Source of the DNA: a phage
Sequence record: NC_100327.1
Reading direction: 5' to 3' (one strand)
DNA length: 64,000 nucleotides
The notes under the pieces are model-generated. The model saw only the letters and a list, made by a program, of their open reading frames with translations. It searched no databases and was not told the origin of the DNA. Position 1 is the stretch's first letter. Every line of letters begins with the position of its first letter. Shown piece by piece: positions 128-29,049 of this stretch. A program made the position numbers and the translations under genes.

Positions 128-2110
128 TTATTTGGTGTTATTCTTTGCGTCGATCAGTTCACGGTATTCAATCATAGCAGGAGTGTCCCAATATTTCAAG
201 CCCACATGCTTCAAAAGTGGATATTTCTTTTCCAATCTTGCAATATAGGCCTTCCCGCACTTGACTCGGTTGGCGATTAAGATTTTGGCACGATGATTTA
301 GCTCACTGTGCTTCCACGCGGTGTTACCTTCCCACTTGTGGAAATGTGGCCGATAATTTCCAAAATCTTGCATGGGGATAATTTTCCCTAATTGTCTATA
401 CAGGCTGTCATATGAAGTTTCATTTGCTGCGCGAGTCAGTAAGAATTTCCAGGCGTCCTCTTTCAACAAATGTTCCACATTTTTCTCTGTAACATACTGG
501 CAATCAGGATCAGTCCAAAGCAGACGAGATTCTGATACCAGGTACAGATCTTCCCCTTCAGGAATCTGGAGTGCCGCACGCACACGGTCATAATTTTGCT
601 GGTAGATGTTACTTAGCTGTCCCAGCCAACAACTTCCACGTTGGATATCACCCTCATAAGGAATGCAGTGCTTAATCTTCTTGAACTCTGCCTTAGTAAT
701 ACGCTCACGACGGAAGTAACCATCTTTCTCAAGTTTTTTAACCCAATACCCTGGCTCATAGTGAGTTTTTGTTTCACCTTTCTTTACAGGACGGCGAGGG
801 AGCTCTGATAACAATTTGACCGTATCTGCAAAGAACGGGTGGTGTGCCGCTTCTTTAAACTCTTCCATCAGATCCGTGTTACGGCAATAGAAAACGTTGC
901 GTCCGGTGATCTCGCTTAAGTAGTTACACTTATTTCGGTTATATTTGCCGTCTCCGTCGTTAAATACAAGGTATACACCTCGTAAGAACTCCGACTTTCC
1001 GTAACGAGCATAGCCTATGCGGCCTTTATTTAAGCCGCCAGCGAAAATTTCACAATCGCCTAAGTCGCCAAGCCCTGTTTCTTCCCAACGGTTCCACATA
1101 AAGTTTTTGCCGAAGATGTGTCCGAACACTCCACTGTTCTTCATCATCTCACGTGCTTCTGAGGATGTTTTTGCTGTCTCCAATTCCGCAACAACTTCTG
1201 CCCCACGAAGACGTATACCTTCTTTGACAAAGGCCTCCAGGCGATCCTGGAATCCACCATCGTCGTGCCCCTCTATGGTCCATTCGCGCCCAGGGTTAAT
1301 ATTGCAATCCCCGATAGGGATCTCTACACAGATTGCAGGGTAGTCTGTCAATGTTTCCAGAAACTTAGAGCGGTAAGGTTGGTGTCCCATCACCACACGG
1401 CTCTCATCAGAGCTGGTATAACCTTTCAGGATAGTCATTTTCCAACCATCTTTCTCGTAGCGATACTGCGCCTCAACCTTGTCACCTTCCAGCATCTTAC
1501 TGGTCATAGGGTCGGTAACGGTAAACGGAAACTTTGCATAGCGTAGGCATGACGCAATAGCAGTGCGATATTTCAGAACATGCTCTTTCTTAACATGGAA
1601 CTGAACTTTTACCCCGTTGTGCTCTTCAGTCTTTCGCTCGCGGATCTTGGTAACGTTTGGGATACCCTGATCCAAGAACAATAGATATGTGCTTTCAACA
1701 CCATTGTGCACACTGATAACATCGAAAGTGTCCACCATACTGAACGGAGCCTTTGAACCAACACCTTTATTACCTACCAGAGCGTTGCTGTTGCGCTTGG
1801 TTGACTCCCCGAGATTCATGAAAGTGTTGCGGACCATCTCTTCTGACATGCCCAATCCAACGTCCTGCACAAAGAAGTATGGTTCAAGGTCTGTAGGAGA
1901 GTGAATGATGATCGGTACATCACCCCGTCCAGACTCAACATGGGAGTCCACAGCATTGAAGATTGGTTCACGGCAGCTTGCCAGCACCTTATCTTCGTAA
2001 ATCCCTTTAATGATTAGCCCAAAAGTCTCTTTGTTCAGAGAAATTGAGCCCCTGGTGACCTCCATATTTCCGGTTAGTACTGCTTTAGTTTCATTACTGT
2101 TTACAATCAT
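128..2110 (-). CDS. GHKL-superfamily ATPase (Hsp90/MutL/MORC-like ATP-binding fold) with large uncharacterised C-terminal region
   Basis: 660-aa ORF; N-box EPIFNAVDSH, G1 box DVGLGMS, G2 box GNKGVGSKA within first ~130 aa; stop overlaps RBS of downstream gene. Confidence 0.6.
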   Translation of the reverse strand: MIVNSNETKAVLTGNMEVTRGSISLNKETFGLIIKGIYEDKVLASCREPIFNAVDSHVESGRGDVPIIIHSPTDLEPYFFVQDVGLGMSEEMVRNTFMNLGESTKRNSNALVGNKGVGSKAPFSMVDTFDVISVHNGVESTYLLFLDQGIPNVTKIRERKTEEHNGVKVQFHVKKEHVLKYRTAIASCLRYAKFPFTVTDPMTSKMLEGDKVEAQYRYEKDGWKMTILKGYTSSDESRVVMGHQPYRSKFLETLTDYPAICVEIPIGDCNINPGREWTIEGHDDGGFQDRLEAFVKEGIRLRGAEVVAELETAKTSSEAREMMKNSGVFGHIFGKNFMWNRWEETGLGDLGDCEIFAGGLNKGRIGYARYGKSEFLRGVYLVFNDGDGKYNRNKCNYLSEITGRNVFYCRNTDLMEEFKEAAHHPFFADTVKLLSELPRRPVKKGETKTHYEPGYWVKKLEKDGYFRRERITKAEFKKIKHCIPYEGDIQRGSCWLGQLSNIYQQNYDRVRAALQIPEGEDLYLVSESRLLWTDPDCQYVTEKNVEHLLKEDAWKFLLTRAANETSYDSLYRQLGKIIPMQDFGNYRPHFHKWEGNTAWKHSELNHRAKILIANRVKCGKAYIARLEKKYPLLKHVGLKYWDTPAMIEYRELIDAKNNTK

Positions 2111-2607
2111 TTATTGCGCTCCTTGTAGTAGATATGACTCCCGAATTGAGCTGTCCTCTGCATCTTTTTTGCCCATTTCGGTCGTACTTTGGTTGTATGG
2201 TAGTGTGTTGCTCCACCTGTTATGTCCATAGCCATGTATGCAACATGGTTGTTATTATAGACCTTTAGAAGCATCTTTGCAAGACTTTTAGCGTGATCCC
2301 ATGAATCTTTTTCTGTCACCTTAAAAGTTTTGCCGTGGTTTGTCCACGAAAACTGGTTAGGTTGGTAGACAATCTTTCTTATAGTGTCTGGGTATTTGGG
2401 GTGAGATTTCCTGTTTAGTGTGGCAAACCCTGATGCCAGCATACCCATCGTGCCATCCCCTCTAGCCTCCCTGTAGATATTGCATGCCAGAATGTTTTCC
2501 TTAGTATCTGAGGGCTTGCAAGTATGATATACTTTTTGTTTTGGTGCTGCAACAACAGGCAGCGATAAAAGTGCGCTCAAAATAATAGCAAAGATCTTAA
2601 TTTTCAC
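2107..2607 (-). CDS. secreted cell-wall hydrolase, SleB/Hydrolase_2-like (candidate endolysin)
   Basis: 166 aa; N-terminal hydrophobic signal or SAR-like segment MKIKIFAIILSALLSLPVVAA; NIYREARGDG motif typical of SleB-type hydrolases; GTG start preceded by GGAG. Confidence 0.5.
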   Translation of the reverse strand: MKIKIFAIILSALLSLPVVAAPKQKVYHTCKPSDTKENILACNIYREARGDGTMGMLASGFATLNRKSHPKYPDTIRKIVYQPNQFSWTNHGKTFKVTEKDSWDHAKSLAKMLLKVYNNNHVAYMAMDITGGATHYHTTKVRPKWAKKMQRTAQFGSHIYYKERNK

Positions 2608-2616
2608 AATGACTCC

Positions 2617-2644
2617 AAATAGAAAATCCCCGCCGAAGCGGGGG
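2617..2644 (-). terminator. rho-independent terminator (CCCCGC-CGAA-GCGGGG hairpin plus U-run on minus-strand RNA)
   Basis: GC hairpin 2627-2644 followed on minus strand by T-run (plus A-run 2622-2626); sits immediately before RBS of hydrolase gene. Confidence 0.6.
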
Positions 2645-2656
2645 AGGTCTTAGAAA

Positions 2657-3037
2657 TTAATCGTAGTGTGCCAAAATCTCTCCATCGTTGCAAGTTCCCT
2701 CTACAAAGTTATGAAGATTCATGCACTCATCTTGATAGAAGAATTTACCGCTTTTCAGCCGTAGGCCAAACAACTCCGCATCTCCACGATGGCAAGCCTC
2801 TACAAGTTCATAGATTTCATACGGCAACTCTCCGTCGTCATGGAAGAATCCAGCCTTATCGTTGACATAAATGAAGAAATAATCACTGCTATCGCAAGCG
2901 TCCAATATTTTAAACCAGATTTCATCTACATCTTTTTCTCGGATATCGATCACGCAAGTGGAGCTGCATTCGTACTCCTTCTCCGGCTCCTCGGTCAATA
3001 CCACCAGGTAGTTTCCCCGCTTACCTACTTTAGCCAT
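2657..3037 (-). CDS. hypothetical protein
   Basis: ORF 2657-3085 trimmed to ATG at 3037 (MAKVGKRG...) which has AAGGGGGG RBS and avoids overlap with upstream gene. Confidence 0.5.
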   Translation of the reverse strand: MAKVGKRGNYLVVLTEEPEKEYECSSTCVIDIREKDVDEIWFKILDACDSSDYFFIYVNDKAGFFHDDGELPYEIYELVEACHRGDAELFGLRLKSGKFFYQDECMNLHNFVEGTCNDGEILAHYD

Positions 3038-3047
3038 ACAACCCCCC

Positions 3048-4232
3048 TTAAGCTTTAGCCAAAATGGCGCTAAACTCTTCACCAAACTCTTTTACAATCT
3101 TCATCAGGTTTGGGTATGCTTTGATCAGCTGAGCAACAATCTTGTCACGCCCTTTACCGATAAGCAAGGCATTTCCTAAGGCATTAGGTTTCATCATCGC
3201 CATAAAGACTGAGAATACAAAATCTCGGTTCTCGTCCTTGAAGTTTTCCCAAAGGAAATCGAGGAAGTTTGCCACACAGCTGACAAGATCTTCGTCTGAG
3301 ATACTTGCATTTTCCATCATATTACGAATAGCGATACAACCTTCAGATCCAAGAATCCACAAAATGTCTGGCTGCTTAGGACCTACGTATTCTTTGCAGC
3401 CACCTGCCATAATCCGACCGATTTCCGGTAAATTGCGTTTCTTGGTGTGGTATGTCCAGATCTCTACCGCTGCAGTGTGACCAATAGCACCTTGCAGAAG
3501 AACACGGGCCATAGCGTCAGAAATAATACCGCTGTCAAAATCGTGCAAGATGTCAGATGCAGCAACCCAAGATCGTGGTGTGGCAAAAGATGGACAATTA
3601 ATCTCAGCCATAGCCTCATAATTATCAATAGCTGATGGAACTCTTTTCAGATACCCAATTACAGAGGAGTGAACCCCGTTGAGGAATGCGTAGTCCTCAA
3701 TAAACACCTCTGCATTGCTTGTAACCTCTACAATGATAAAACGGTTAGCCAGAGGGGCTTCGAGCGCCGAAAGAACCGCACCATCTGTAGAACGGTTACC
3801 CGCAGCCACAAAAACAGAACCCTTAGGGAATGCATAGGTGCCGCACTTGTGGTCAAGCATAATTTGCATTGCAACCTTTTGCAGGTAGTTATCTGCATGA
3901 GTGAGCTCATCCAGAAAGATAATTCCGCTCCAGTCAGGATCCGCAGGCCAAAATTCTGGAATTGCAAACACTGTACGTGTAGTTCCATCCGCTTCTACAG
4001 GGATAGGTAGCCCAGATAAGTCGGCAGGATCTTTATCTGACAGTCGCACGTCAACAAGGTTGTCATCTCGCTCACCGAACATATTATCAGCGATCTGCTT
4101 CATCACCTGGCTTTTACCCACACCCATTGGTCCCAAAATTAGGACAGATCGGCTATGACGTTGGGCAAACTGAATAATAGCTGGCAACTCACGGACAGTG
4201 ATTTGACCACTTTCGAATACGTTTCTTGACAT
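3048..4232 (-). CDS. MoxR/CobS-like AAA+ ATPase (AAA_5 family)
   Basis: 394 aa; Walker A GPMGVGKS, Walker B IIFLDELTHA, arginine-finger region AAGNRS; size and motifs typical of MoxR-type ATPases. Confidence 0.7.
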   Translation of the reverse strand: MSRNVFESGQITVRELPAIIQFAQRHSRSVLILGPMGVGKSQVMKQIADNMFGERDDNLVDVRLSDKDPADLSGLPIPVEADGTTRTVFAIPEFWPADPDWSGIIFLDELTHADNYLQKVAMQIMLDHKCGTYAFPKGSVFVAAGNRSTDGAVLSALEAPLANRFIIVEVTSNAEVFIEDYAFLNGVHSSVIGYLKRVPSAIDNYEAMAEINCPSFATPRSWVAASDILHDFDSGIISDAMARVLLQGAIGHTAAVEIWTYHTKKRNLPEIGRIMAGGCKEYVGPKQPDILWILGSEGCIAIRNMMENASISDEDLVSCVANFLDFLWENFKDENRDFVFSVFMAMMKPNALGNALLIGKGRDKIVAQLIKAYPNLMKIVKEFGEEFSAILAKA

Positions 4233-6799: not shown

Positions 6800-6812
6800 C
6801 ACGTTTTTGATG

Positions 6813-6841
6813 TTGACATCTGTTGAGACAATTGATAAGAT
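6813..6841 (+). promoter_or_regulatory. sigma70-like promoter for rightward early operon (TTGACA, 17-nt spacer, TG-extended TAAGAT)
   Basis: Consensus -35 TTGACA at 6813-6818; weaker -10 at 6836-6841 with TG at 6833-6834; back-to-back with leftward promoter so the two -35 boxes form palindrome GTCAACA-N9-TGTTGAC. Confidence 0.45.
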
Positions 6842-6872
6842 TTCTTCACTTACAGAGCACGAGAGACGACTC

Positions 6873-7850
6873 ATGAATCTTGAAAAATATTATACACCAG
6901 AAGAGTTAGAGCGCTTGCTCAAAAAATATAGACGCAAACAGAATAACGCACGGAAACGAGATATAGAGTTCGACCTGTCATGGGAAGAATACCTCCTATT
7001 TGGTAAAAAACTTTTAGGAGATGGAGTATGCGACTATACCCTTATACCTTTTGACATGCACACAGATGAAAACGGGCTGGGGAATCCTTTCTACCCATCC
7101 CTGGAGCGGATAGATGATGAAGGTCCTTATGCGGTTGATAACTGTTGTGTGGTGGGATTGAGATGCAACTCTCTAAAGGACTGTCTGGTAGATAAAAAGA
7201 CTGCAGTCTTGATTAAAGACGAAACTGATCGAAAAATTGTCCAGCAGATGATGCTCCACCTGAGCGAAGAGCGTATGGAGAAATTGAAAGGTGATTATAC
7301 TTTTGAAGATTTCATCTTGCAATATGGAACGGAAGAGGATAAACTAGCACTCTTTGACGAAGAAGAGGAGGAAGATATGCTACCGATGTCTAAAGTTACT
7401 TATCGTGCACCCAAGAAGCACATTTCCGACATTGTAAACGAGCCTATCACAGAAGAGATTGAAGAAATGACGCAACAGGTGCATGAAGAGGAAAAAGAGA
7501 CTCAGGAGGTCGAAGAGGAGCTTACAGAAGAGGTTCCTGCACTACCTGATGATGTTGAGATTGCCAAAGCTTACACTTTCTATTGTCAAACGTTCTACGA
7601 TGTAGGTATGAAAGTTGATCTGTCGTTCAGCCAATTTAAGAGTTCGTATATTCGCAAATGCTGTGCTTTAACTGGTGAACGTCTTGGAGCTGGACTTAAA
7701 CCCCTGTTGGTGACCGACTGGAATAAAGGTTTCACTAAAGGAAACTTTATGGTAGTATCTCCGATTATGGAGAAAGCTATGACAGATCTTATGAAGACCA
7801 CCCGCATGACAATGACCGAGTTGGCAGGTATTTTCAAACACGTTAAATAA
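6873..7850 (+). CDS. hypothetical protein; N-terminal part has a degenerate HNH-like motif, C-terminal part begins with the repeat-encoded MSKVTYRA after an internal SD-like sequence
   Basis: ORF 6807-7850 trimmed to ATG 6873 because 6807 lies inside the promoter; acidic linker DEEEEED; internal GAGGAGGAAGAT plus ATG at 7387 may mark a nested start. Confidence 0.45.
   Translation: MNLEKYYTPEELERLLKKYRRKQNNARKRDIEFDLSWEEYLLFGKKLLGDGVCDYTLIPFDMHTDENGLGNPFYPSLERIDDEGPYAVDNCCVVGLRCNSLKDCLVDKKTAVLIKDETDRKIVQQMMLHLSEERMEKLKGDYTFEDFILQYGTEEDKLALFDEEEEEDMLPMSKVTYRAPKKHISDIVNEPITEEIEEMTQQVHEEEKETQEVEEELTEEVPALPDDVEIAKAYTFYCQTFYDVGMKVDLSFSQFKSSYIRKCCALTGERLGAGLKPLLVTDWNKGFTKGNFMVVSPIMEKAMTDLMKTTRMTMTELAGIFKHVK
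7381..7409. repeat. 29-bp perfect inverted repeat, right copy (partner at 5519-5547)
   Basis: Exact reverse-complement match to 5519-5547. Confidence 0.9.
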
Positions 7851-7883
7851 TGACAGGGGCCAATGGCCCCTTCTGGAGTTTTA

Positions 7884-9344
7884 ATGGATAGCAGAAGTTC
7901 AGAAATCATTGCCTCGCAGAAAGATGATGCCCTGAGAATGTTGCAGGCTGCACGTATGTATCTCCTTGAAAAGCTGCCGTTTTATGGCACACTACTGTCA
8001 GGGTTGCAGTTCGTAGAAAACCACACATGGTGCTCCACCATGGCAACCGACCATAAACGCATCTATTACAGTCCTGAGTTCATTATGGGATTGGCTGATG
8101 AACGCAAGGCTATTCTTAAGGCTTCTCTAACTGACGAGCAGTTTGAGATGGCTGAAGTTTTCTATTCCCCAAAATCTGTGAAAGAGGTGGCCTTCCTTCT
8201 GTCACATGAGGTGGGGCATATTATCTGTGATCACCTAGTCCGTGGTAAAAGCTTTGAGCCGGAACTGTTCAATATTGCTTGTGATCACGTTATCAACACA
8301 GGCCTTGTGGTTGACTTTAGCAAACCTCCTTGTGTTTTCTTCCCGAAGGGGAAAAGCACTACGTTCCTGAAAGGTAAGCCTTTTGGCTTCTTAGCCAGCT
8401 GCTACTGCGACATGAAGTTTCATGGATGGATTGCTGAGAACGTTTATGCAGTTCTTGATAAGCAAAGAGATCAGAATAACGGTAAAAGTAAGAACGGTAA
8501 AGGTGAGAACTCTCAAAGTGATAAGCGACAAACCGATGATCGCATGAGTGGGAACGGTGGCACCAGTGATAATCTTGGAAAGGCTATGGGGTATGATCAG
8601 CCACAACCTGTAATCAGCCAATCTGATAAAGATCAGGCCATGCAGGACTCTGGTGATATGCTGGAGGCAGCAATGCAAGCGTCCGGAGGCCGTTGCCCTG
8701 AGGCGGTGCGTGAGTTTGTCAAGAACAGAGGTAAGCCTGTAATCAACTATATAGACATCATTAAGCAACGTATGTTGTCTAAAAGAAAGGCCGAACTGAC
8801 CTACAGAAAACCTGGTCGCCGATCTGGGTCTTTGACCAGCACAATGCGAAAAGTTGGGGCTATAAACAAGAACCAGCACGTTATTGTTCCTGGTCGTAAT
8901 CCGGAAAACACTATAGATATTGTGGTGGCTTTAGACGTTTCTGGCTCGATCTCTCAAAGAACTTTAAAGAAAATGTTCAATGAAATCACCGGATTGTGCA
9001 ATCTGTATAAAGAGTTTAAGGTTACAATGTTCTGTTGGTCAACTGAGGTTGGAGAGGTTAAAGTATACACTCGCGGCAACATAGACGAGATGGTCAACTA
9101 TGAGGTCCACTCAACATGGGGCACAACAGCTGCTTGCGTGTTCGAGTATCTGGATGCCAACATACCTAATGCAAAAGATGTCATCGTCCTGACCGACCTA
9201 TACTTTGAGCATAACTTTGAACAAAAGGTTGTTGACAACAAGTGGAAAAAGTACGATACTCTATGGGTCCTCACTGAGGGGTATAATAAAAATTATATCC
9301 CGAGCTTTGGGAAAACTGTGGAATTAATCGAGTACGCTAAGTAA
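7884..9344 (+). CDS. zinc-metallopeptidase-like plus von Willebrand A domain protein (DUF2201-like, typical partner of MoxR ATPases)
   Basis: HEXXH motif HEVGHIICDH in N-terminal half; C-terminal MIDAS-type VWA motif VVALDVSGSIS; start moved to ATG 7884 with GGAG RBS, outside the GGGGCC-AAT-GGCCCC hairpin at 7856-7870. Confidence 0.65.
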   Translation: MDSRSSEIIASQKDDALRMLQAARMYLLEKLPFYGTLLSGLQFVENHTWCSTMATDHKRIYYSPEFIMGLADERKAILKASLTDEQFEMAEVFYSPKSVKEVAFLLSHEVGHIICDHLVRGKSFEPELFNIACDHVINTGLVVDFSKPPCVFFPKGKSTTFLKGKPFGFLASCYCDMKFHGWIAENVYAVLDKQRDQNNGKSKNGKGENSQSDKRQTDDRMSGNGGTSDNLGKAMGYDQPQPVISQSDKDQAMQDSGDMLEAAMQASGGRCPEAVREFVKNRGKPVINYIDIIKQRMLSKRKAELTYRKPGRRSGSLTSTMRKVGAINKNQHVIVPGRNPENTIDIVVALDVSGSISQRTLKKMFNEITGLCNLYKEFKVTMFCWSTEVGEVKVYTRGNIDEMVNYEVHSTWGTTAACVFEYLDANIPNAKDVIVLTDLYFEHNFEQKVVDNKWKKYDTLWVLTEGYNKNYIPSFGKTVELIEYAK

Positions 9345-9359
9345 GAGAGGAGGTTATTT

Positions 9360-9623
9360 ATGGCAACAGAGTTAAAATTTGCATCAAACCGTAAAACTAA
9401 GAAGTATCTGTCCTCAGTAGCTCCAGGCACTGTGGTGATGTTTGTTGATGAACTTGGGGATGTGAATACAGCACTTGTTGTAAAATCACATCCTGCAAAC
9501 ATATATGTTGGGGTATTTGACCTGTTCAGAAAGGTGTTTGTAGAACTGCCTCACAGTTTGGTTGTTACAGAAATGGATGCCTGCATAGAAATTCTTGGCG
9601 AAGTTATGGTGGAGGAACAATAA
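9360..9623 (+). CDS. small protein, member 1 of four-gene tandem paralog family
   Basis: 87 aa; GAGGAGG RBS; shares MAT...K.KKK...GTVV...VK...F.L...ILGE pattern with next ORF. Confidence 0.6.
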   Translation: MATELKFASNRKTKKYLSSVAPGTVVMFVDELGDVNTALVVKSHPANIYVGVFDLFRKVFVELPHSLVVTEMDACIEILGEVMVEEQ

Positions 9624-9886
9624 TGGCTACCAGCATTGTATTCAATTCTAAGGTGAAGAACAAAAAGCGTGCAGACAGTTTTCCGTGTGGGACCGTGGTA
9701 AGTTGCGACGGAGACGGCATTCAAAACATAGTTATGATTGTCAAAACAGGAGAACATTGTGTGTGGGGGTTCGATTTAGAAAATAATGAGTTGTACGATC
9801 TGCCGCCAAACATGAAAGTTACAGAGCTTGACACCAAAATTACCATCCTTGGAGAGACAAGCTATTCAAAAGAAGGAGGAGAATAA
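9623..9886 (+). CDS. small protein, member 2 of tandem paralog family
   Basis: 87 aa; start overlaps previous stop; conserved CGTVV and ITILGE positions. Confidence 0.6.
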   Translation: MATSIVFNSKVKNKKRADSFPCGTVVSCDGDGIQNIVMIVKTGEHCVWGFDLENNELYDLPPNMKVTELDTKITILGETSYSKEGGE

Positions 9887-10149
9887 TGACCACAAAAATC
9901 ACTATCGCAGAACCGAAAGCTAACACTCAGCCTATCGAAAAGTTTAAGTGCGGTGAGGTGGTAACATTCACACCAGATAATGAAGATGCTAAGATTTTCG
10001 CAATGGTCACAGCTGAGTGGATGTGTGACAACACCACACAGGTTCTGCGTTTTGACACCTATCTTACCGATGAAATCAGGAACGACAAGATTGTGACTGG
10101 TGTGGATACTGAGATTGTTTTCTACAAGAGCTTTTTAGAGGGTTTCTGA
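9886..10149 (+). CDS. small protein, member 3 of tandem paralog family
   Basis: 87 aa; KCGEVVTF and downstream hydrophobic pattern aligned with members 1-2. Confidence 0.55.
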   Translation: MTTKITIAEPKANTQPIEKFKCGEVVTFTPDNEDAKIFAMVTAEWMCDNTTQVLRFDTYLTDEIRNDKIVTGVDTEIVFYKSFLEGF

Positions 10150-10150
10150 T

Positions 10151-10384
10151 ATGGCAAAAATTAGAAAATTATCTAGCAATCAGGTTGTGAAAGACTTCGA
10201 ATCTGGAGAGATTCTTTATGTTCGTGATGCAGATGACGAAGGTGAAGATCTCGTTATGTTGGTGGGGCACGCTGAGGACGGATGCATCCAAGCTGTTTTT
10301 CTTGAAACAGCTATGGTGCACTGGATAGAGCTGGACCTGAAAGCACGAAAACCTAAAGCAGAAATCCTGATTTACGAAGATTAA
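10151..10384 (+). CDS. small protein, member 4 of tandem paralog family (more divergent)
   Basis: 77 aa; GEILYV...LVMLVG pattern comparable with the other members. Confidence 0.5.
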   Translation: MAKIRKLSSNQVVKDFESGEILYVRDADDEGEDLVMLVGHAEDGCIQAVFLETAMVHWIELDLKARKPKAEILIYED

Positions 10385-10400: not shown

Positions 10401-10850
10401 GTGTTGAGCAAACGTGAATGCGACAGCATTAGCCTGAATTCTTATAAGAAACAATGGTTTGGGGTGGAAGTTTGCCGACTGCGGCTAGGCTCCTACCTGA
10501 ACTTCGTTTATTATGAGAGTGACAGTCGTATCGTTTCTTATGAAGTGTTCTACACTAAGAACACATTCGAACTGCGCCGTAAAGTAGATGGCGGGAGAAC
10601 TACCACCCAGAATAATTGGGAAACTATTCTGCCTCCAGATGTTATAGGAAGTCCCCTGAATGTATCTGAAGATGAAAATCTTATGGTTCATGCTATGATG
10701 GGACTTGACAGCTTAGAGCTGGCAATCTATGATATGTCCATCGAAGCAGTTAAGCTGGACTACATCGAAAACACTTTAGAGGAAGGTATCAAGAAGTTTC
10801 TCAGTGAGAAATTAAAAGACCACTTTCATAAGGAGCTATATCTGTTATGA
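10401..10850 (+). CDS. hypothetical protein
   Basis: 149-aa ORF with AAGGAG RBS and GTG start. Confidence 0.5.
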   Translation: MLSKRECDSISLNSYKKQWFGVEVCRLRLGSYLNFVYYESDSRIVSYEVFYTKNTFELRRKVDGGRTTTQNNWETILPPDVIGSPLNVSEDENLMVHAMMGLDSLELAIYDMSIEAVKLDYIENTLEEGIKKFLSEKLKDHFHKELYLL

Positions 10851-11092
10851 AGACCCGTAAAGAACGTAACAAAATTTTACCTGGAGCTCTCGAACACCTG
10901 ATGAAGTGCAGATCTATTTGGCACTCTGCCAAGGAAGGGCAGAAGGTGGTTGTGGTTAGTGACAATACCAACCCGTTTGGAGATTATACCACCATGATGG
11001 CCCCATATGTCCGTGATGGCGTTGTAGAAGTGGTCCCTTACAACGGTTTGCATGAACGGCACTTTGAAAGCGCTTTGCTAGTGGAGCTATAG
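10847..11092 (+). CDS. hypothetical protein
   Basis: 81-aa ORF, start overlaps upstream stop. Confidence 0.45.
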   Translation: MKTRKERNKILPGALEHLMKCRSIWHSAKEGQKVVVVSDNTNPFGDYTTMMAPYVRDGVVEVVPYNGLHERHFESALLVEL

Positions 11093-11996: not shown

Positions 11997-12461
11997 ATGG
12001 ACTACAGCTACTGCGGGGAAGAAGTCCCTTTTAATTACAGCAATCTTACCACGAGCAATCCATATGAGACTCGCCACGGCACGCACATCATTGCCATCGA
12101 CTTTGATGGAACGTTTAATGCGAGCCCTTTCATCTTCTCCAGCCTGATCAGGGATCTGAAGAAGGAGGGGTGGACAGTCTACCTTGTGACTTTCCGATTC
12201 ATTACTCAAGACAATGTAGACATTGAGTATTGGCGCAAGGAGCTCGATGTTGGTGTGTTCTACACAGGTGGTGTTCAGAAGGCAGCCTACCTGGCGCAGT
12301 TTGATATCTACCCAGATATCTGGATTGATGATTCTCCGGCATGTATTCCGGCTAAGAATCAGTTAGAGTTTGCAATGAAGGAGATTGAGTATAAGTCTGA
12401 GGCTAAGCGGAACGGATGGCCCTTTATTATTGAAGATTACCCAGATCCTGAACCGGAGTAA
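11997..12461 (+). CDS. HAD-superfamily hydrolase-like protein
   Basis: Motif I IAIDFDGT (DxDGT) near N-terminus and IWIDDS near C-terminus; ATG 11997 with AAGGTG RBS. Confidence 0.55.
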   Translation: MDYSYCGEEVPFNYSNLTTSNPYETRHGTHIIAIDFDGTFNASPFIFSSLIRDLKKEGWTVYLVTFRFITQDNVDIEYWRKELDVGVFYTGGVQKAAYLAQFDIYPDIWIDDSPACIPAKNQLEFAMKEIEYKSEAKRNGWPFIIEDYPDPEPE

Positions 12462-13845: not shown

Positions 13846-13879
13846 AAAAAGAAAGGGGCCGTTTGGCCCCTTTTTATTT
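13846..13879. terminator. bidirectional rho-independent terminator between convergent early and late blocks
   Basis: GGGGCC-GTTT-GGCCCC hairpin 13855-13870 flanked by A-run upstream and T-run downstream. Confidence 0.75.
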
Positions 13880-19573: not shown

Positions 19574-21319
19574 TTAACGTTGTGCAATTACTACGTCTAC
19601 AATATCACCAACACCACAATACGTTAATTGCAGCAAGGTAACACTGTTAGCCTTGTTGTTAATAACAGGTGTTGCCGACAGGATAGCATACTTATCGTGC
19701 AAAGTCACGTTGTGACCTACAGCATCCTGAATGACATAGATAACTGCAGTGAATGGATAAGGTTTATCTTCCGCTGATGTCCCAGGCCACTGTCCTATTG
19801 TAAAATCCCCTTTCGCGTGGACAACATACATGCTGGCCTGCCCGTTAGGTGTCCATGTCCCACTGGACGCGTCAACCTCCTCTAAGTCAAAATCTACCTT
19901 TCCTGCGTGGAAAGTAGGGGCAGTAATGGTTTTACCCGCCTCAATTTCTTGAGAGGTGGTTATCTTACCACTGGAGTTAATGCCATTACAGACAAAGTTG
20001 ACATTAGAGAAGTCTGGCAGCCACCCGGTCACTGTGCCGGATATTTCAAGGTTGTGAAGGTAGGTGGTGCCAGTCCCTGCGGCGTTTAAACTAACATCTC
20101 CATTTACCTGCAAGTTTCTGGTAATGTTGCAGTTTTCAGAGTTTGCAGTTGTTGCAGTTAAAGTGGTGGTGGTTAGCTCGGTAATTGTACCTTTATTGGC
20201 TGTAAGCCCTTCTCCTTCAAAAGTTGCACGCTCATTGACTCTTAGAGTATTCAGAGCTATATTTTGGATAGAGGCTGTACCTCGAATAACTACAGACCCG
20301 CCAACCTCCAAATCGCCATTTATCAATGCATCACCCGTGCTTTCAATATAGCTAGGGTAGATCATGGTGCCATCGACAGAGTATGTTATCCCTGTAACGG
20401 TACCTGTCACCTCAAGGTTCTTAACCCTGGTGGTCCCATCGACCTGCAATGTCGGTTCGGTTGCTGCCTTCATGGCATTACCACGAATGTACACGTAGTC
20501 AAAAAAGTTATTACCCAGACCATCAAAATGCACATCGTTATTATTGGCCACTGGTTTCCCAGAAGTTATAGTGTCAGCTATAACCCTGTGGGTGGACACT
20601 TCATGAGGTTGCAGCTCTGTACTTCTCCAGTCTGCATGCTTAGGATCGCTCCACGCAAAAGTAAGTGTAGAAGTATTTGCCGTGAGGATTAGATTCCTAA
20701 AGCGTGCAGTAGAATCTGCCCCATTAACAGGTCCATGTAAGGTAAGGGTGCCACCAACTATAGTGTTAGCGAGTTCTGTAAGACCTTTTACCACCAAAGA
20801 CCCTACAGTAACTTTCATCCCCTCCATGGCTTTAAATATGCTATCAACATAGTCAACAACAAACTCTGTGTTTGCTATGGACTCTGACTTATCGTCCATT
20901 GGAGGTGTAGGTACTCGTGGGTCACCTTCGAACCTCGGGCTGTTAAGTTTTGCGTAGTATTTTGCCATTACTGCAGAGTCGGTATATAATCTCCAGTTTG
21001 GAGATTGTGAAGGATCTGCTGGCATTCTAACCGGGTTAGATTTTGATGCTGCGGGAGCGTACCACCACTGAGGGCCTGTGTCCCCTTTAAACTCGTACAG
21101 CTGGTTAAAAACTGTTGTGGATGCACCATACGCCCAAGGGATCGGTGGCGTTTTAAAATAAAGGTTGTCAAGCATGGCTTTTCGTACCGTAGGGATGGTG
21201 GTCCCATCCTCTACGACAACTTCATCCACAGCGTTACCGTTGACAACCAAGTGCAAACGTTCAGAATCAACAATTACTTGATCTACCGCCTGCTCAAAGC
21301 TTGTCATGTCTTGCGCCAT
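19574..21319 (-). CDS. tail fibre or tailspike protein
   Basis: 581 aa, Gly/Thr/Asn/Val-rich repeats typical of beta-helical fibre proteins; inside tail-fibre gene block. Confidence 0.5.
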   Translation of the reverse strand: MAQDMTSFEQAVDQVIVDSERLHLVVNGNAVDEVVVEDGTTIPTVRKAMLDNLYFKTPPIPWAYGASTTVFNQLYEFKGDTGPQWWYAPAASKSNPVRMPADPSQSPNWRLYTDSAVMAKYYAKLNSPRFEGDPRVPTPPMDDKSESIANTEFVVDYVDSIFKAMEGMKVTVGSLVVKGLTELANTIVGGTLTLHGPVNGADSTARFRNLILTANTSTLTFAWSDPKHADWRSTELQPHEVSTHRVIADTITSGKPVANNNDVHFDGLGNNFFDYVYIRGNAMKAATEPTLQVDGTTRVKNLEVTGTVTGITYSVDGTMIYPSYIESTGDALINGDLEVGGSVVIRGTASIQNIALNTLRVNERATFEGEGLTANKGTITELTTTTLTATTANSENCNITRNLQVNGDVSLNAAGTGTTYLHNLEISGTVTGWLPDFSNVNFVCNGINSSGKITTSQEIEAGKTITAPTFHAGKVDFDLEEVDASSGTWTPNGQASMYVVHAKGDFTIGQWPGTSAEDKPYPFTAVIYVIQDAVGHNVTLHDKYAILSATPVINNKANSVTLLQLTYCGVGDIVDVVIAQR

Positions 21320-28978: not shown

Positions 28979-29049
28979 GTCACTCCTCCGGTATGAAAAT
29001 CTCTACAAGGTATTTTACCAAATTTTGTAACAATAGTCAATCTGAGCAT

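Follow-up and report, generated by a model that had tools for sequence, protein, structure and literature searches.

A tandem array of small acidic proteins with a predicted SH3-like fold, and its exchangeable first slot, in an rV5-like phage

Do four short genes that follow one another almost without a gap in a phage genome belong to a single family, and what might such an array be for? The question is posed by positions 9360-10384 of a 64,000-nucleotide (nt) stretch of phage DNA (record NC_100327.1; "the window" below means this whole stretch), where four open reading frames (ORFs), here called p1 to p4, run on the + strand. Judged by its sequence, the genome is that of a Vequintavirus, an rV5-like myovirus: the region 6800-12500 matches Escherichia phages nimi and CarlMeissner at 100% identity, and about 110 further records at 97-99.8%. 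Few E. coli phages are isolated as often as the rV5-like ones, which also serve in biocontrol and therapy cocktails; of their roughly 220 genes, the greater part has no known function. We find that p1, p2 and p3 are paralogues of one family to which p4 probably also belongs, that copy number in this position varies among related phages, and that the first part of the array is an allelic cassette, while the last two genes are nearly invariant. On balance we think that p1-p4 are lineage-specific, small, acidic SH3-like binding proteins, expressed together with host-takeover genes and organised as a constant pair plus a swappable slot.

A family of small tandem paralogues

The initial annotation had proposed four consecutive ORFs of 87, 87, 87 and 77 amino acids (aa) that abut or overlap, and these coordinates proved exact. 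The genes, with their isoelectric points (pI), and the ribosome-binding sites that precede them are as follows.

9345-9353, + strand: Shine-Dalgarno site of p1, GAGAGGAGG, with an AGGAGG core at 9348-9353
9360-9623, + strand: p1, 87 aa, pI 5.0, A-type paralogue in phrog_10698; 5' half of the exchangeable cassette
9611-9615, + strand: Shine-Dalgarno site of p2, GGAGG, within the preceding coding sequence
9623-9886, + strand: p2, 87 aa, pI 4.9, A-type paralogue in phrog_10698; 3' half of the exchangeable cassette
9873-9879, + strand: Shine-Dalgarno site of p3, AAGGAGG, within the preceding coding sequence
9886-10149, + strand: p3, 87 aa, pI 4.5, B-type paralogue in phrog_12861; hardly varies within the genus
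10138-10142, + strand: Shine-Dalgarno site of p4, GAGGG, within the preceding coding sequence
10151-10384, + strand: p4, 77 aa, probable C-type paralogue, phrog_12046, pI 4.6; near-invariant and the most divergent member

The p1/p2 and p2/p3 junctions both read TAATG, a 1-nt overlap in which, at the first of them, the p1 stop codon TAA runs into the ATG of p2; the p3/p4 junction, TGAtATG, leaves a 1-nt gap. Each gene has its own Shine-Dalgarno site, read from the sequence, 6-8 nt 5' of its start, and ribosome-binding sites are annotated at matching places in the record of phage Murica. From the stop/start overlaps it is reasonable to infer that translation of the four genes is coupled. An acidic C-terminal segment had been put forward as a feature common to the four proteins; its Glu/Gly-rich tails (VEEQ, KEGGE and LEGF) are partly dictated, because the GGAGG of the next gene overlaps those codons.

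Pairwise similarity exceeds that of shuffled controls, unevenly. Smith-Waterman scores set against 500 shuffles gave z=20 for p1-p2, 4.7 for p2-p3, 4.1 for p3-p4 and 3.1 for p2-p4, and the p1-p3 and p1-p4 scores were not significant. Profiles speak more clearly. We distinguish A-type (p1, p2 and the rV5 gp014 alleles), B-type (p3) and C-type (p4) subfamilies, and searched every one of the window's 666 ORF segments with leave-one-subfamily-out hidden Markov models (HMMs). The A-type model retrieved p3 at E=1e-4, the A+B model retrieved p4 at E=1e-4 and the A+C model retrieved p3 at E=6e-8, in each case with no other ORF near. In hhalign comparisons, A against B reached a probability of 93.6% (E=2e-7, 75 columns) and A against C 54% (E=1.3e-4, 67 collinear columns), and B against C alone was not significant. 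On this sequence evidence p1-p3 are certainly paralogues of one family; the membership of p4 is only probable, because B against C is not significant and A against C modest.

Against its own family in the PHROGs database each of the four proteins aligns over its full length at E of about 1e-41 to 1e-62, and PHROGs divides them among three separate families, all of "unknown function". Between paralogues, amino acid identity is 13-38% and synonymous divergence (dS) is saturated; DNA-level comparison of the array genes yielded only short matches at chance level. Saturated dS together with the lack of DNA repeats indicates that the copies are old. HMM scans of the window and of the other 73 kb of the nimi genome yielded no further family copies. 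A fifth candidate, gp018 (10847-11092), was rejected, as hhalign gave it a probability of 0.2% and the family HMMs miss it; lying two genes downstream of the array, it encodes a conserved, beta-rich protein of 81 aa with a VVVV motif and a near-neutral pI of 7.9.

All four genes are under purifying selection. Ratios of nonsynonymous to synonymous divergence (dN/dS) were computed against the orthologues of phage Aya, of a more distant four-gene phage (L016) and of rV5, and came to 0.22-0.24 for p1, 0.15 for p2, 0.01-0.02 for p3 and 0.03-0.04 for p4, the last rising to 0.13 against rV5, where dS is only 0.04. As dS lies at 0.1-1.4 in the other comparisons, values so far below 1 mark real genes under purifying selection, and no gene-wide positive selection was seen by dN/dS in any of the four. 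The array had been described as rapidly diverging as a whole. That description holds for the first slot, with its dN/dS of 0.15-0.24 and its alternative cassettes, and fails for p3 and p4: p1 and p2 evolve 5-10 times faster than the latter pair. Against L016, amino acid identity is 56-64% for p1 and p2 and 95-98% for p3 and p4, compared with 82% and 61% for the neighbouring DUF2201 and gp017 genes, so that p3 and p4 are held under tighter constraint than their neighbours. Across all 117 GenBank records that carry them, identity is at least 93% for p3 and at least 89.6% for p4.

These results leave little room for the proposal that the four are unrelated small ORFs that resemble one another by chance, or ORFs that do not code at all. 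Its support is that the p1-p3, p1-p4 and B-C comparisons each fall short of significance individually; it is contradicted by transitive profile evidence (E of 1e-4 to 2e-7) that is full-length and collinear, by dN/dS values well below 1 with substantial dS, and by conservation in 117 genomes. For p1-p3 chance resemblance is effectively refuted, and for the array as a whole we regard it as scarcely credible.

Copy number and an exchangeable first slot

The family is confined to a narrow group of phages. A word-indexed search of 5.8 billion proteins returned 41 matches, all of them variants (43-98 aa) of p1-p4 or of rV5 gp014 and many from contigs of about 130-140 kb. An exhaustive HMMER search of 1.84 billion representative proteins returned 10 matches, nine of which are family members, and found no relative outside the rV5-like phage group. 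The tenth (P0042) is a low-complexity repeat protein of 2210 aa, built of "GELVYTNEDADNANV" units, whose E=4e-24 against the family profile comes from 18 short stretches; it was set aside as a compositional false positive and is a caution for profile searches with this family. Among GenBank phages, an identical set of 117 records matches p2, p3 and p4. Sixteen GenBank records labelled "Campylobacter phage" with C. jejuni as host (e.g., MG065635, MG065672 and MG065644) are, across this region, 98-99% identical to E. coli rV5-like phages, and that host assignment looks doubtful.

Within the 117 records the first slot is dimorphic: 43 carry p1 and p2, and 74 carry a single gene, rV5 gp014. The latter is about 40% (36-44%) identical to p1 and to p2 alike over its entire length and forms a separate clade. 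We considered whether gp014 might be a deletion chimera of p1 and p2, and rejected this, since its full-length similarity to both and its own clade identify it as a separate allele. The exchanged segment is

9372-9885, + strand: allelic cassette p1+p2, replaced by gp014 in rV5-type genomes

When the window is compared with rV5, the flanks are 96-100% identical and the collapse of identity is confined to approximately these positions, with one breakpoint past codon 4 of p1 and the other at the TAATG junction of the p2 stop and p3 start (9884-9888). Both forms occur within the species Vequintavirus murica (phage Murica as against Pr121LW). Near-identical flanks, sharp breakpoints and the two forms within one species together indicate that the first slot is an allelic cassette exchanged by recombination.

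The array as a whole occupies a slot between two other genes, which are

7863-9344, + strand: DUF2201 metallopeptidase-like plus VWA-like protein, 493 aa, the upstream neighbour (Pfam PF13203, E=4e-28; PF09967, E=2.5e-11)
10401-10850, + strand: gp017 homologue, the downstream neighbour, after which gp018 and gp019 continue the + strand run

Homologues of the DUF2201/VWA protein occur in 457 phage records, and that of Pseudomonas phage LIT1 is labelled "N4 gp25-like". It is a single ORF of 493 aa in the window and in most relatives; in the rV5 reference NC_011041 (L002, 1024-2485) it is split into two overlapping coding sequences, gp012 and gp013, probably through a frameshift or a sequencing error in that reference. 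Several names derived from RefSeq and PHROGs call gp017 a "tail protein" and the DUF2201/VWA protein, as well as the Srd-like protein that opens the operon, an "HNH endonuclease"; these look like propagated errors, Pfam placing the DUF2201 gene as metallopeptidase-like with a VWA domain.

Between these two genes related phages carry none, one (the metagenomic relative L005), three (rV5) or four copies (the window), a series that supports an expansion specific to this lineage. Seunavirus, Mydovirus, Henunavirus, Certrevirus and the phages W70 and SSBI34 have the gp017 homologue immediately after the DUF2201 gene, and no family member turned up when the syntenic regions in GAP31, Mydo, pEp_SNUABM_01, W70, CR8 and SSBI34 were scanned with the HMMs. 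The single copy of L005 lies in the equivalent slot and scores with all three subfamily HMMs. Singletons also sit elsewhere: an A-type gene lies between HAD-like and Cys-rich genes in two metagenomic phages of 137-140 kb (L008 and L033), and a third, of 137 kb (L022), has a B-type gene with 78% identity to p3 just before its Srd-like gene. Single members are thus evidently able to function alone.

Several other genes in these regions deserve mention. L005 carries a TnpB/Cas12f-like gene (OrfB_IS605, Cas12f1-like_TNB; 2119-3258) in the divergent intergenic region that directly precedes its Srd-like operon, and L022 encodes a homologue of ParE-like toxins, by a weak Pfam match, and a protein with a P22-type head-binding domain (19775-20044; 2055-3932). 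In Seunavirus, Mydovirus and Henunavirus a gene of 86-88 aa lies between the Srd-like and DUF2201 genes (GAP31_032 at 2668-2928 of L010; Mydo gp041 at 2697-2957 of L011), and its pattern "F..G..V...WGF.L" resembles that of the array family. It was not accepted as a relative (hhalign probability 1.8%, E=0.027), and may be either a very distant one or a convergent small barrel.

The position of the array raises the possibility that its products are accessory subunits, adaptors or substrates of a module formed by a MoxR-type ATPase, the VWA-metallopeptidase and gp017. That gp017 directly follows the VWA gene in the Vequintavirinae lineages examined suggests a conserved ATPase-VWA-gp017 module; the array is inserted exactly between two genes that are adjacent or overlapping in other Vequintavirinae examined, appears translationally linked to both, and is matched by the single copy of L005 in the equivalent slot. 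Against an accessory role, six other Vequintavirinae lineages examined (the four named genera, W70 and SSBI34) have a working module and no family member, the VWA gene of L022 directly abuts a gp017-like gene while its sole family member lies about 2 kb upstream, before the Srd-like gene, and the singletons of L008 and L033 stand between HAD-like and Cys-rich genes. We therefore consider such a role improbable.

Operon context and predicted fold

The array had been placed in an early region of the genome, and promoter prediction agrees. The presumed operon start lies upstream of the array, where we find

6813-6841, + strand: sigma70-type promoter-like site, TTGACA-17-TAAGAT with an extended -10 TG, upstream of the Srd-like gene; presumed operon start
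6807-7850, + strand: Srd-like anti-sigma-factor homologue that opens the operon (PHROG sigma70-decoy, E=3e-15; Srd, E=3e-10)

The rV5 paper also takes this gene as Srd-like (PMC3606486), and the promoter-like site corresponds to the predicted rV5 promoter P011 (PMC3606486, Table S4). Our scan for terminators gave two weak + strand sites, at 12015 and 13000, both downstream of the array, and none upstream of it. The first strong hairpin, with its GC-rich stem at 13852-13873, is a - strand call; rV5 terminators t026/t027 are predicted on both strands at the matching site (PMC3606486, Table S4). No late-promoter motif was found in the operon. The exact rV5 late-promoter motif occurs in the window on the - strand only, within the structural module, and its core TGGTAAAATA, allowing at most one mismatch, has 19 matches against 5.7 expected, almost exclusively in the same - strand module (e.g., at 29011, 34522, 48675 and 52196).

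A virion role had been named among the findings that would speak against the initial proposal, and the available proteomics does not indicate one: the 19 proteins that mass spectrometry detected in rV5 virions do not include gp14-16, the orthologues of the array (PMC3606486, text and Table S5). From the sigma70-type promoter, the lack of a late motif in the operon and this absence from virions we infer that the genes are expressed early or in the middle of infection and that their products are non-structural. In the literature we found no Vequintavirus transcriptome, no mention of the array genes by accession or locus tag and no anti-defence report for the genus; a CRISPRi-ART study included the vequintavirus EdH4 for no more than a few targeted genes (PMC11879866). 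Cas13a counter-selection and dCas13d CRISPRi-ART both work on EdH4 (PMC9712115, PMC11879866).

The four proteins are small (8.8-10.0 kDa, typically about 9.5 kDa) and acidic, with pI values of 4.5-5.0 and a net charge of -4 to -8, the barrel part of the predicted fold carrying -7 to -9. Across the family the only invariant columns are the Gly of the G-T/E-V/I-V motif and an Ile of the last strand, a Phe being mostly conserved, and no catalytic-type constellation of residues is conserved in the family alignments. The shared pattern described in the initial annotation thus stands in its core, with an invariant Gly in an all-beta protein, and is too generous at the N terminus, where a basic stretch is clear only in p1 and p2 (the first 20 residues carry +4 in these two and +1 in p3 and p4).

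An AlphaFold2 model of p2, built from the family alignment, reached a predicted local distance difference test score (pLDDT) of 78 and a predicted template modelling score (pTM) of 0.65, and contains six beta strands (residues 2-16, 25-30, 33-42, 47-51, 56-60 and 65-76). When searched with Foldseek against the Protein Data Bank (PDB), nearly all of its top 50 matches were SH3-like barrels, with template modelling (TM) scores of about 0.45-0.53 and probabilities of 0.9-1.0; they include uL2, Spt5 KOW, eIF5A, Tudor, PWWP and the translocation-signal domain of TraI. A model of p4, which forms its own subfamily, was made from its near-identical orthologues alone; at pLDDT 65 it has the same strand order as p2, and the two share five generic small-barrel matches in BFVD searches. 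The p4 model is compatible with a common fold. On the p2 model the family is predicted to adopt an SH3-like small beta-barrel, an assignment that holds at the level of fold only. Searches of p1-p4 against Pfam, NCBIfam, PADLOC and PDB sequences gave no match.

A fold of this kind invites the suggestion that the proteins are nucleic-acid-binding regulators of the Tudor, KOW or Sm type, acting on transcription or translation. The best PDB matches just listed and the basic N-terminal strand of p1 and p2 are in its favour. The charge of the proteins, and of the barrel in particular, is opposed to it, and so are the individual classes. For Tudor and PWWP there is no Pfam match even at E<=1 and no set of aromatic residues conserved across the subfamilies that could form a cage. 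For the KOW and translation-type SH3-like domains there is no match to Pfam KOW (PF00467), and the proteins, at pI 4.5-5.0, are not basic. For Sm and Hfq there is no match to Pfam LSM or Hfq, and neither the p2 nor the p4 model contains a helix, such as the N-terminal one of that class. Direct nucleic-acid binding is, in our estimate, very improbable.

Possible functions and known systems

The reading we favour, that of small acidic binding proteins made alongside host-takeover genes, may be set out as follows. The ancestor of Vequintavirus would have acquired the family between the DUF2201/VWA gene and gp017, and its copies would then have increased to three and four through tandem duplication, capture of related cassettes or both. 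Today p3 and p4 are a constant pair on which purifying selection is very strong, and the first slot varies, holding either p1 and p2 or a gp014-type allele, swapped by recombination between nearly identical genomes at gene boundaries. The proteins would be made as non-structural accessory products from a probably early, sigma70-driven operon shared with the Srd-like anti-sigma factor, the stop/start overlaps keeping expression of the paralogues coupled. Since no catalytic residue is conserved and the barrel is strongly negative, they most likely act by stoichiometric binding of other proteins; host factors are candidate targets, as possibly are basic nucleic-acid-binding proteins, and the paralogues would differ in the target or target variant for which each is specialised.

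A number of points count against this reading. No homology or experiment ties any member of p1-p4 to a function or partner, and the expression timing is taken from promoter prediction alone. The PDB fold matches are weak (E of 0.08-0.3) and SH3-like barrels are functionally promiscuous. The homology of p4 depends on E values of about 1e-4, and its model (pLDDT 65) matches its own orthologue in BFVD, not A-type proteins. Finally, that p3 and p4 hardly vary would be explained by a housekeeping role in phage development as well as by a host-directed one.

The initial annotation saw in the array a gene family typical of host takeover or anti-defence, and from the sequences such a role is plausible. 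In its strict form, each paralogue would inhibit a different immune system and the variable first slot would track variable host defences. The proteins are small, acidic, probably early and non-structural, alternative cassettes are exchanged between near-identical genomes, mobile singletons occupy varied slots in related phages, and the first-slot genes are the faster evolving, all of which counts in its favour. On the other side, no characterised protein was matched, gene-wide positive selection was not seen and p3 and p4 are nearly invariant, unlike arms-race genes. Moreover, when the BASEL collection was phenotyped, the Vequintavirinae proved "exceptionally susceptible" to restriction-modification and were frequent targets of abortive-infection systems, with "minor differences" in immunity profile from one Vequintavirus isolate to another (PMC8594841); the BASEL phages include carriers of the exact array, for example CarlMeissner and HeinrichReichert. 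This susceptibility argues against anti-restriction, the commonest role of small acidic early proteins, and protection of the kind conferred by DNA mimics such as Ocr, ArdA or Arn is not seen in the same published phenotyping (PMC8594841). A dedicated counter-defence family is possible, and we think it unlikely.

A related and more speculative idea, which we rate as distinctly unlikely, divides the labour within the array. Here p3 and p4, perhaps joined in a hetero-oligomer, would form a conserved core whose host target does not vary, and the exchangeable first-slot cassette (p1 and p2, the gp014 type or other alleles) would supply specificity for strain-variable host factors such as immune systems. 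The hetero-oligomer idea draws on the likeness to SH3- and Sm-like barrels, which often form oligomers. If this were true, the array would represent a structurally distinct new class of phage host-takeover or counter-defence proteins, and natural allelic "plug-ins" would fix host range after adsorption.

The practical value lies in the natural variation. Phages with three genes (e.g., AlexBoehm and rV5) and with four (e.g., CarlMeissner and nimi) are natural isogenic comparisons, and several are in the public BASEL collection. If host range or the evasion of defences turns out to depend on the variable slot, that slot could be a handle for phage engineering; otherwise the family would be another conserved accessory module of a large phage. 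What is new is that three ORFan PHROG families are merged into one paralogous family, p4 being its probable member, with a predicted fold and a clear evolutionary pattern. The array is otherwise of a familiar kind, a set of lineage-restricted small accessory genes in a large phage.

The closest known entries are the PHROG families themselves: phrog_10698 (p1, p2 and rV5 gp014), phrog_12861 (p3) and phrog_12046 (p4) hold the same proteins, catalogued from other Vequintavirus genomes as three unrelated families without function, which our profile comparisons unite. The characterised SH3-like barrels (Tudor, PWWP, KOW, uL2 and the eIF5A N-terminal domain) share with the p2 model a five-strand core that superposes in prediction. 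Unlike them, p1-p4 are acidic and have neither a sequence match nor an aromatic cage, a KOW motif or an Sm helix, and the p2 model adds a long N-terminal strand (2-16) and a long last strand (65-76). Searched against the viral models of BFVD, the p2 model retrieves first the family itself. In size and predicted fold it is also like a group of uncharacterised phage proteins of 70-90 aa, among them N4 gp21, the vB_EcoP_SU7 protein A0A8F3C9H7 and proteins of LAMP and 172-1 (BFVD, TM 0.6-0.75); at only 11-23% identity to p2, and with neither detectable homology nor a known function, these point to a fold class and to no mechanism.

A further comparison is with other cases in which small viral genes have multiplied in tandem. 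In poxviruses, "gene accordions" multiply small accessory genes in this way. Among phages, a report on T6 describes SegB-driven segmental amplification of anti-defence loci (PMC13096335). Both resemble the present array in consisting of tandem copies, but those copies are recent, near-identical and under acute selection, whereas p1-p4 are ancient and stably inherited, and two of them are held under strong constraint.

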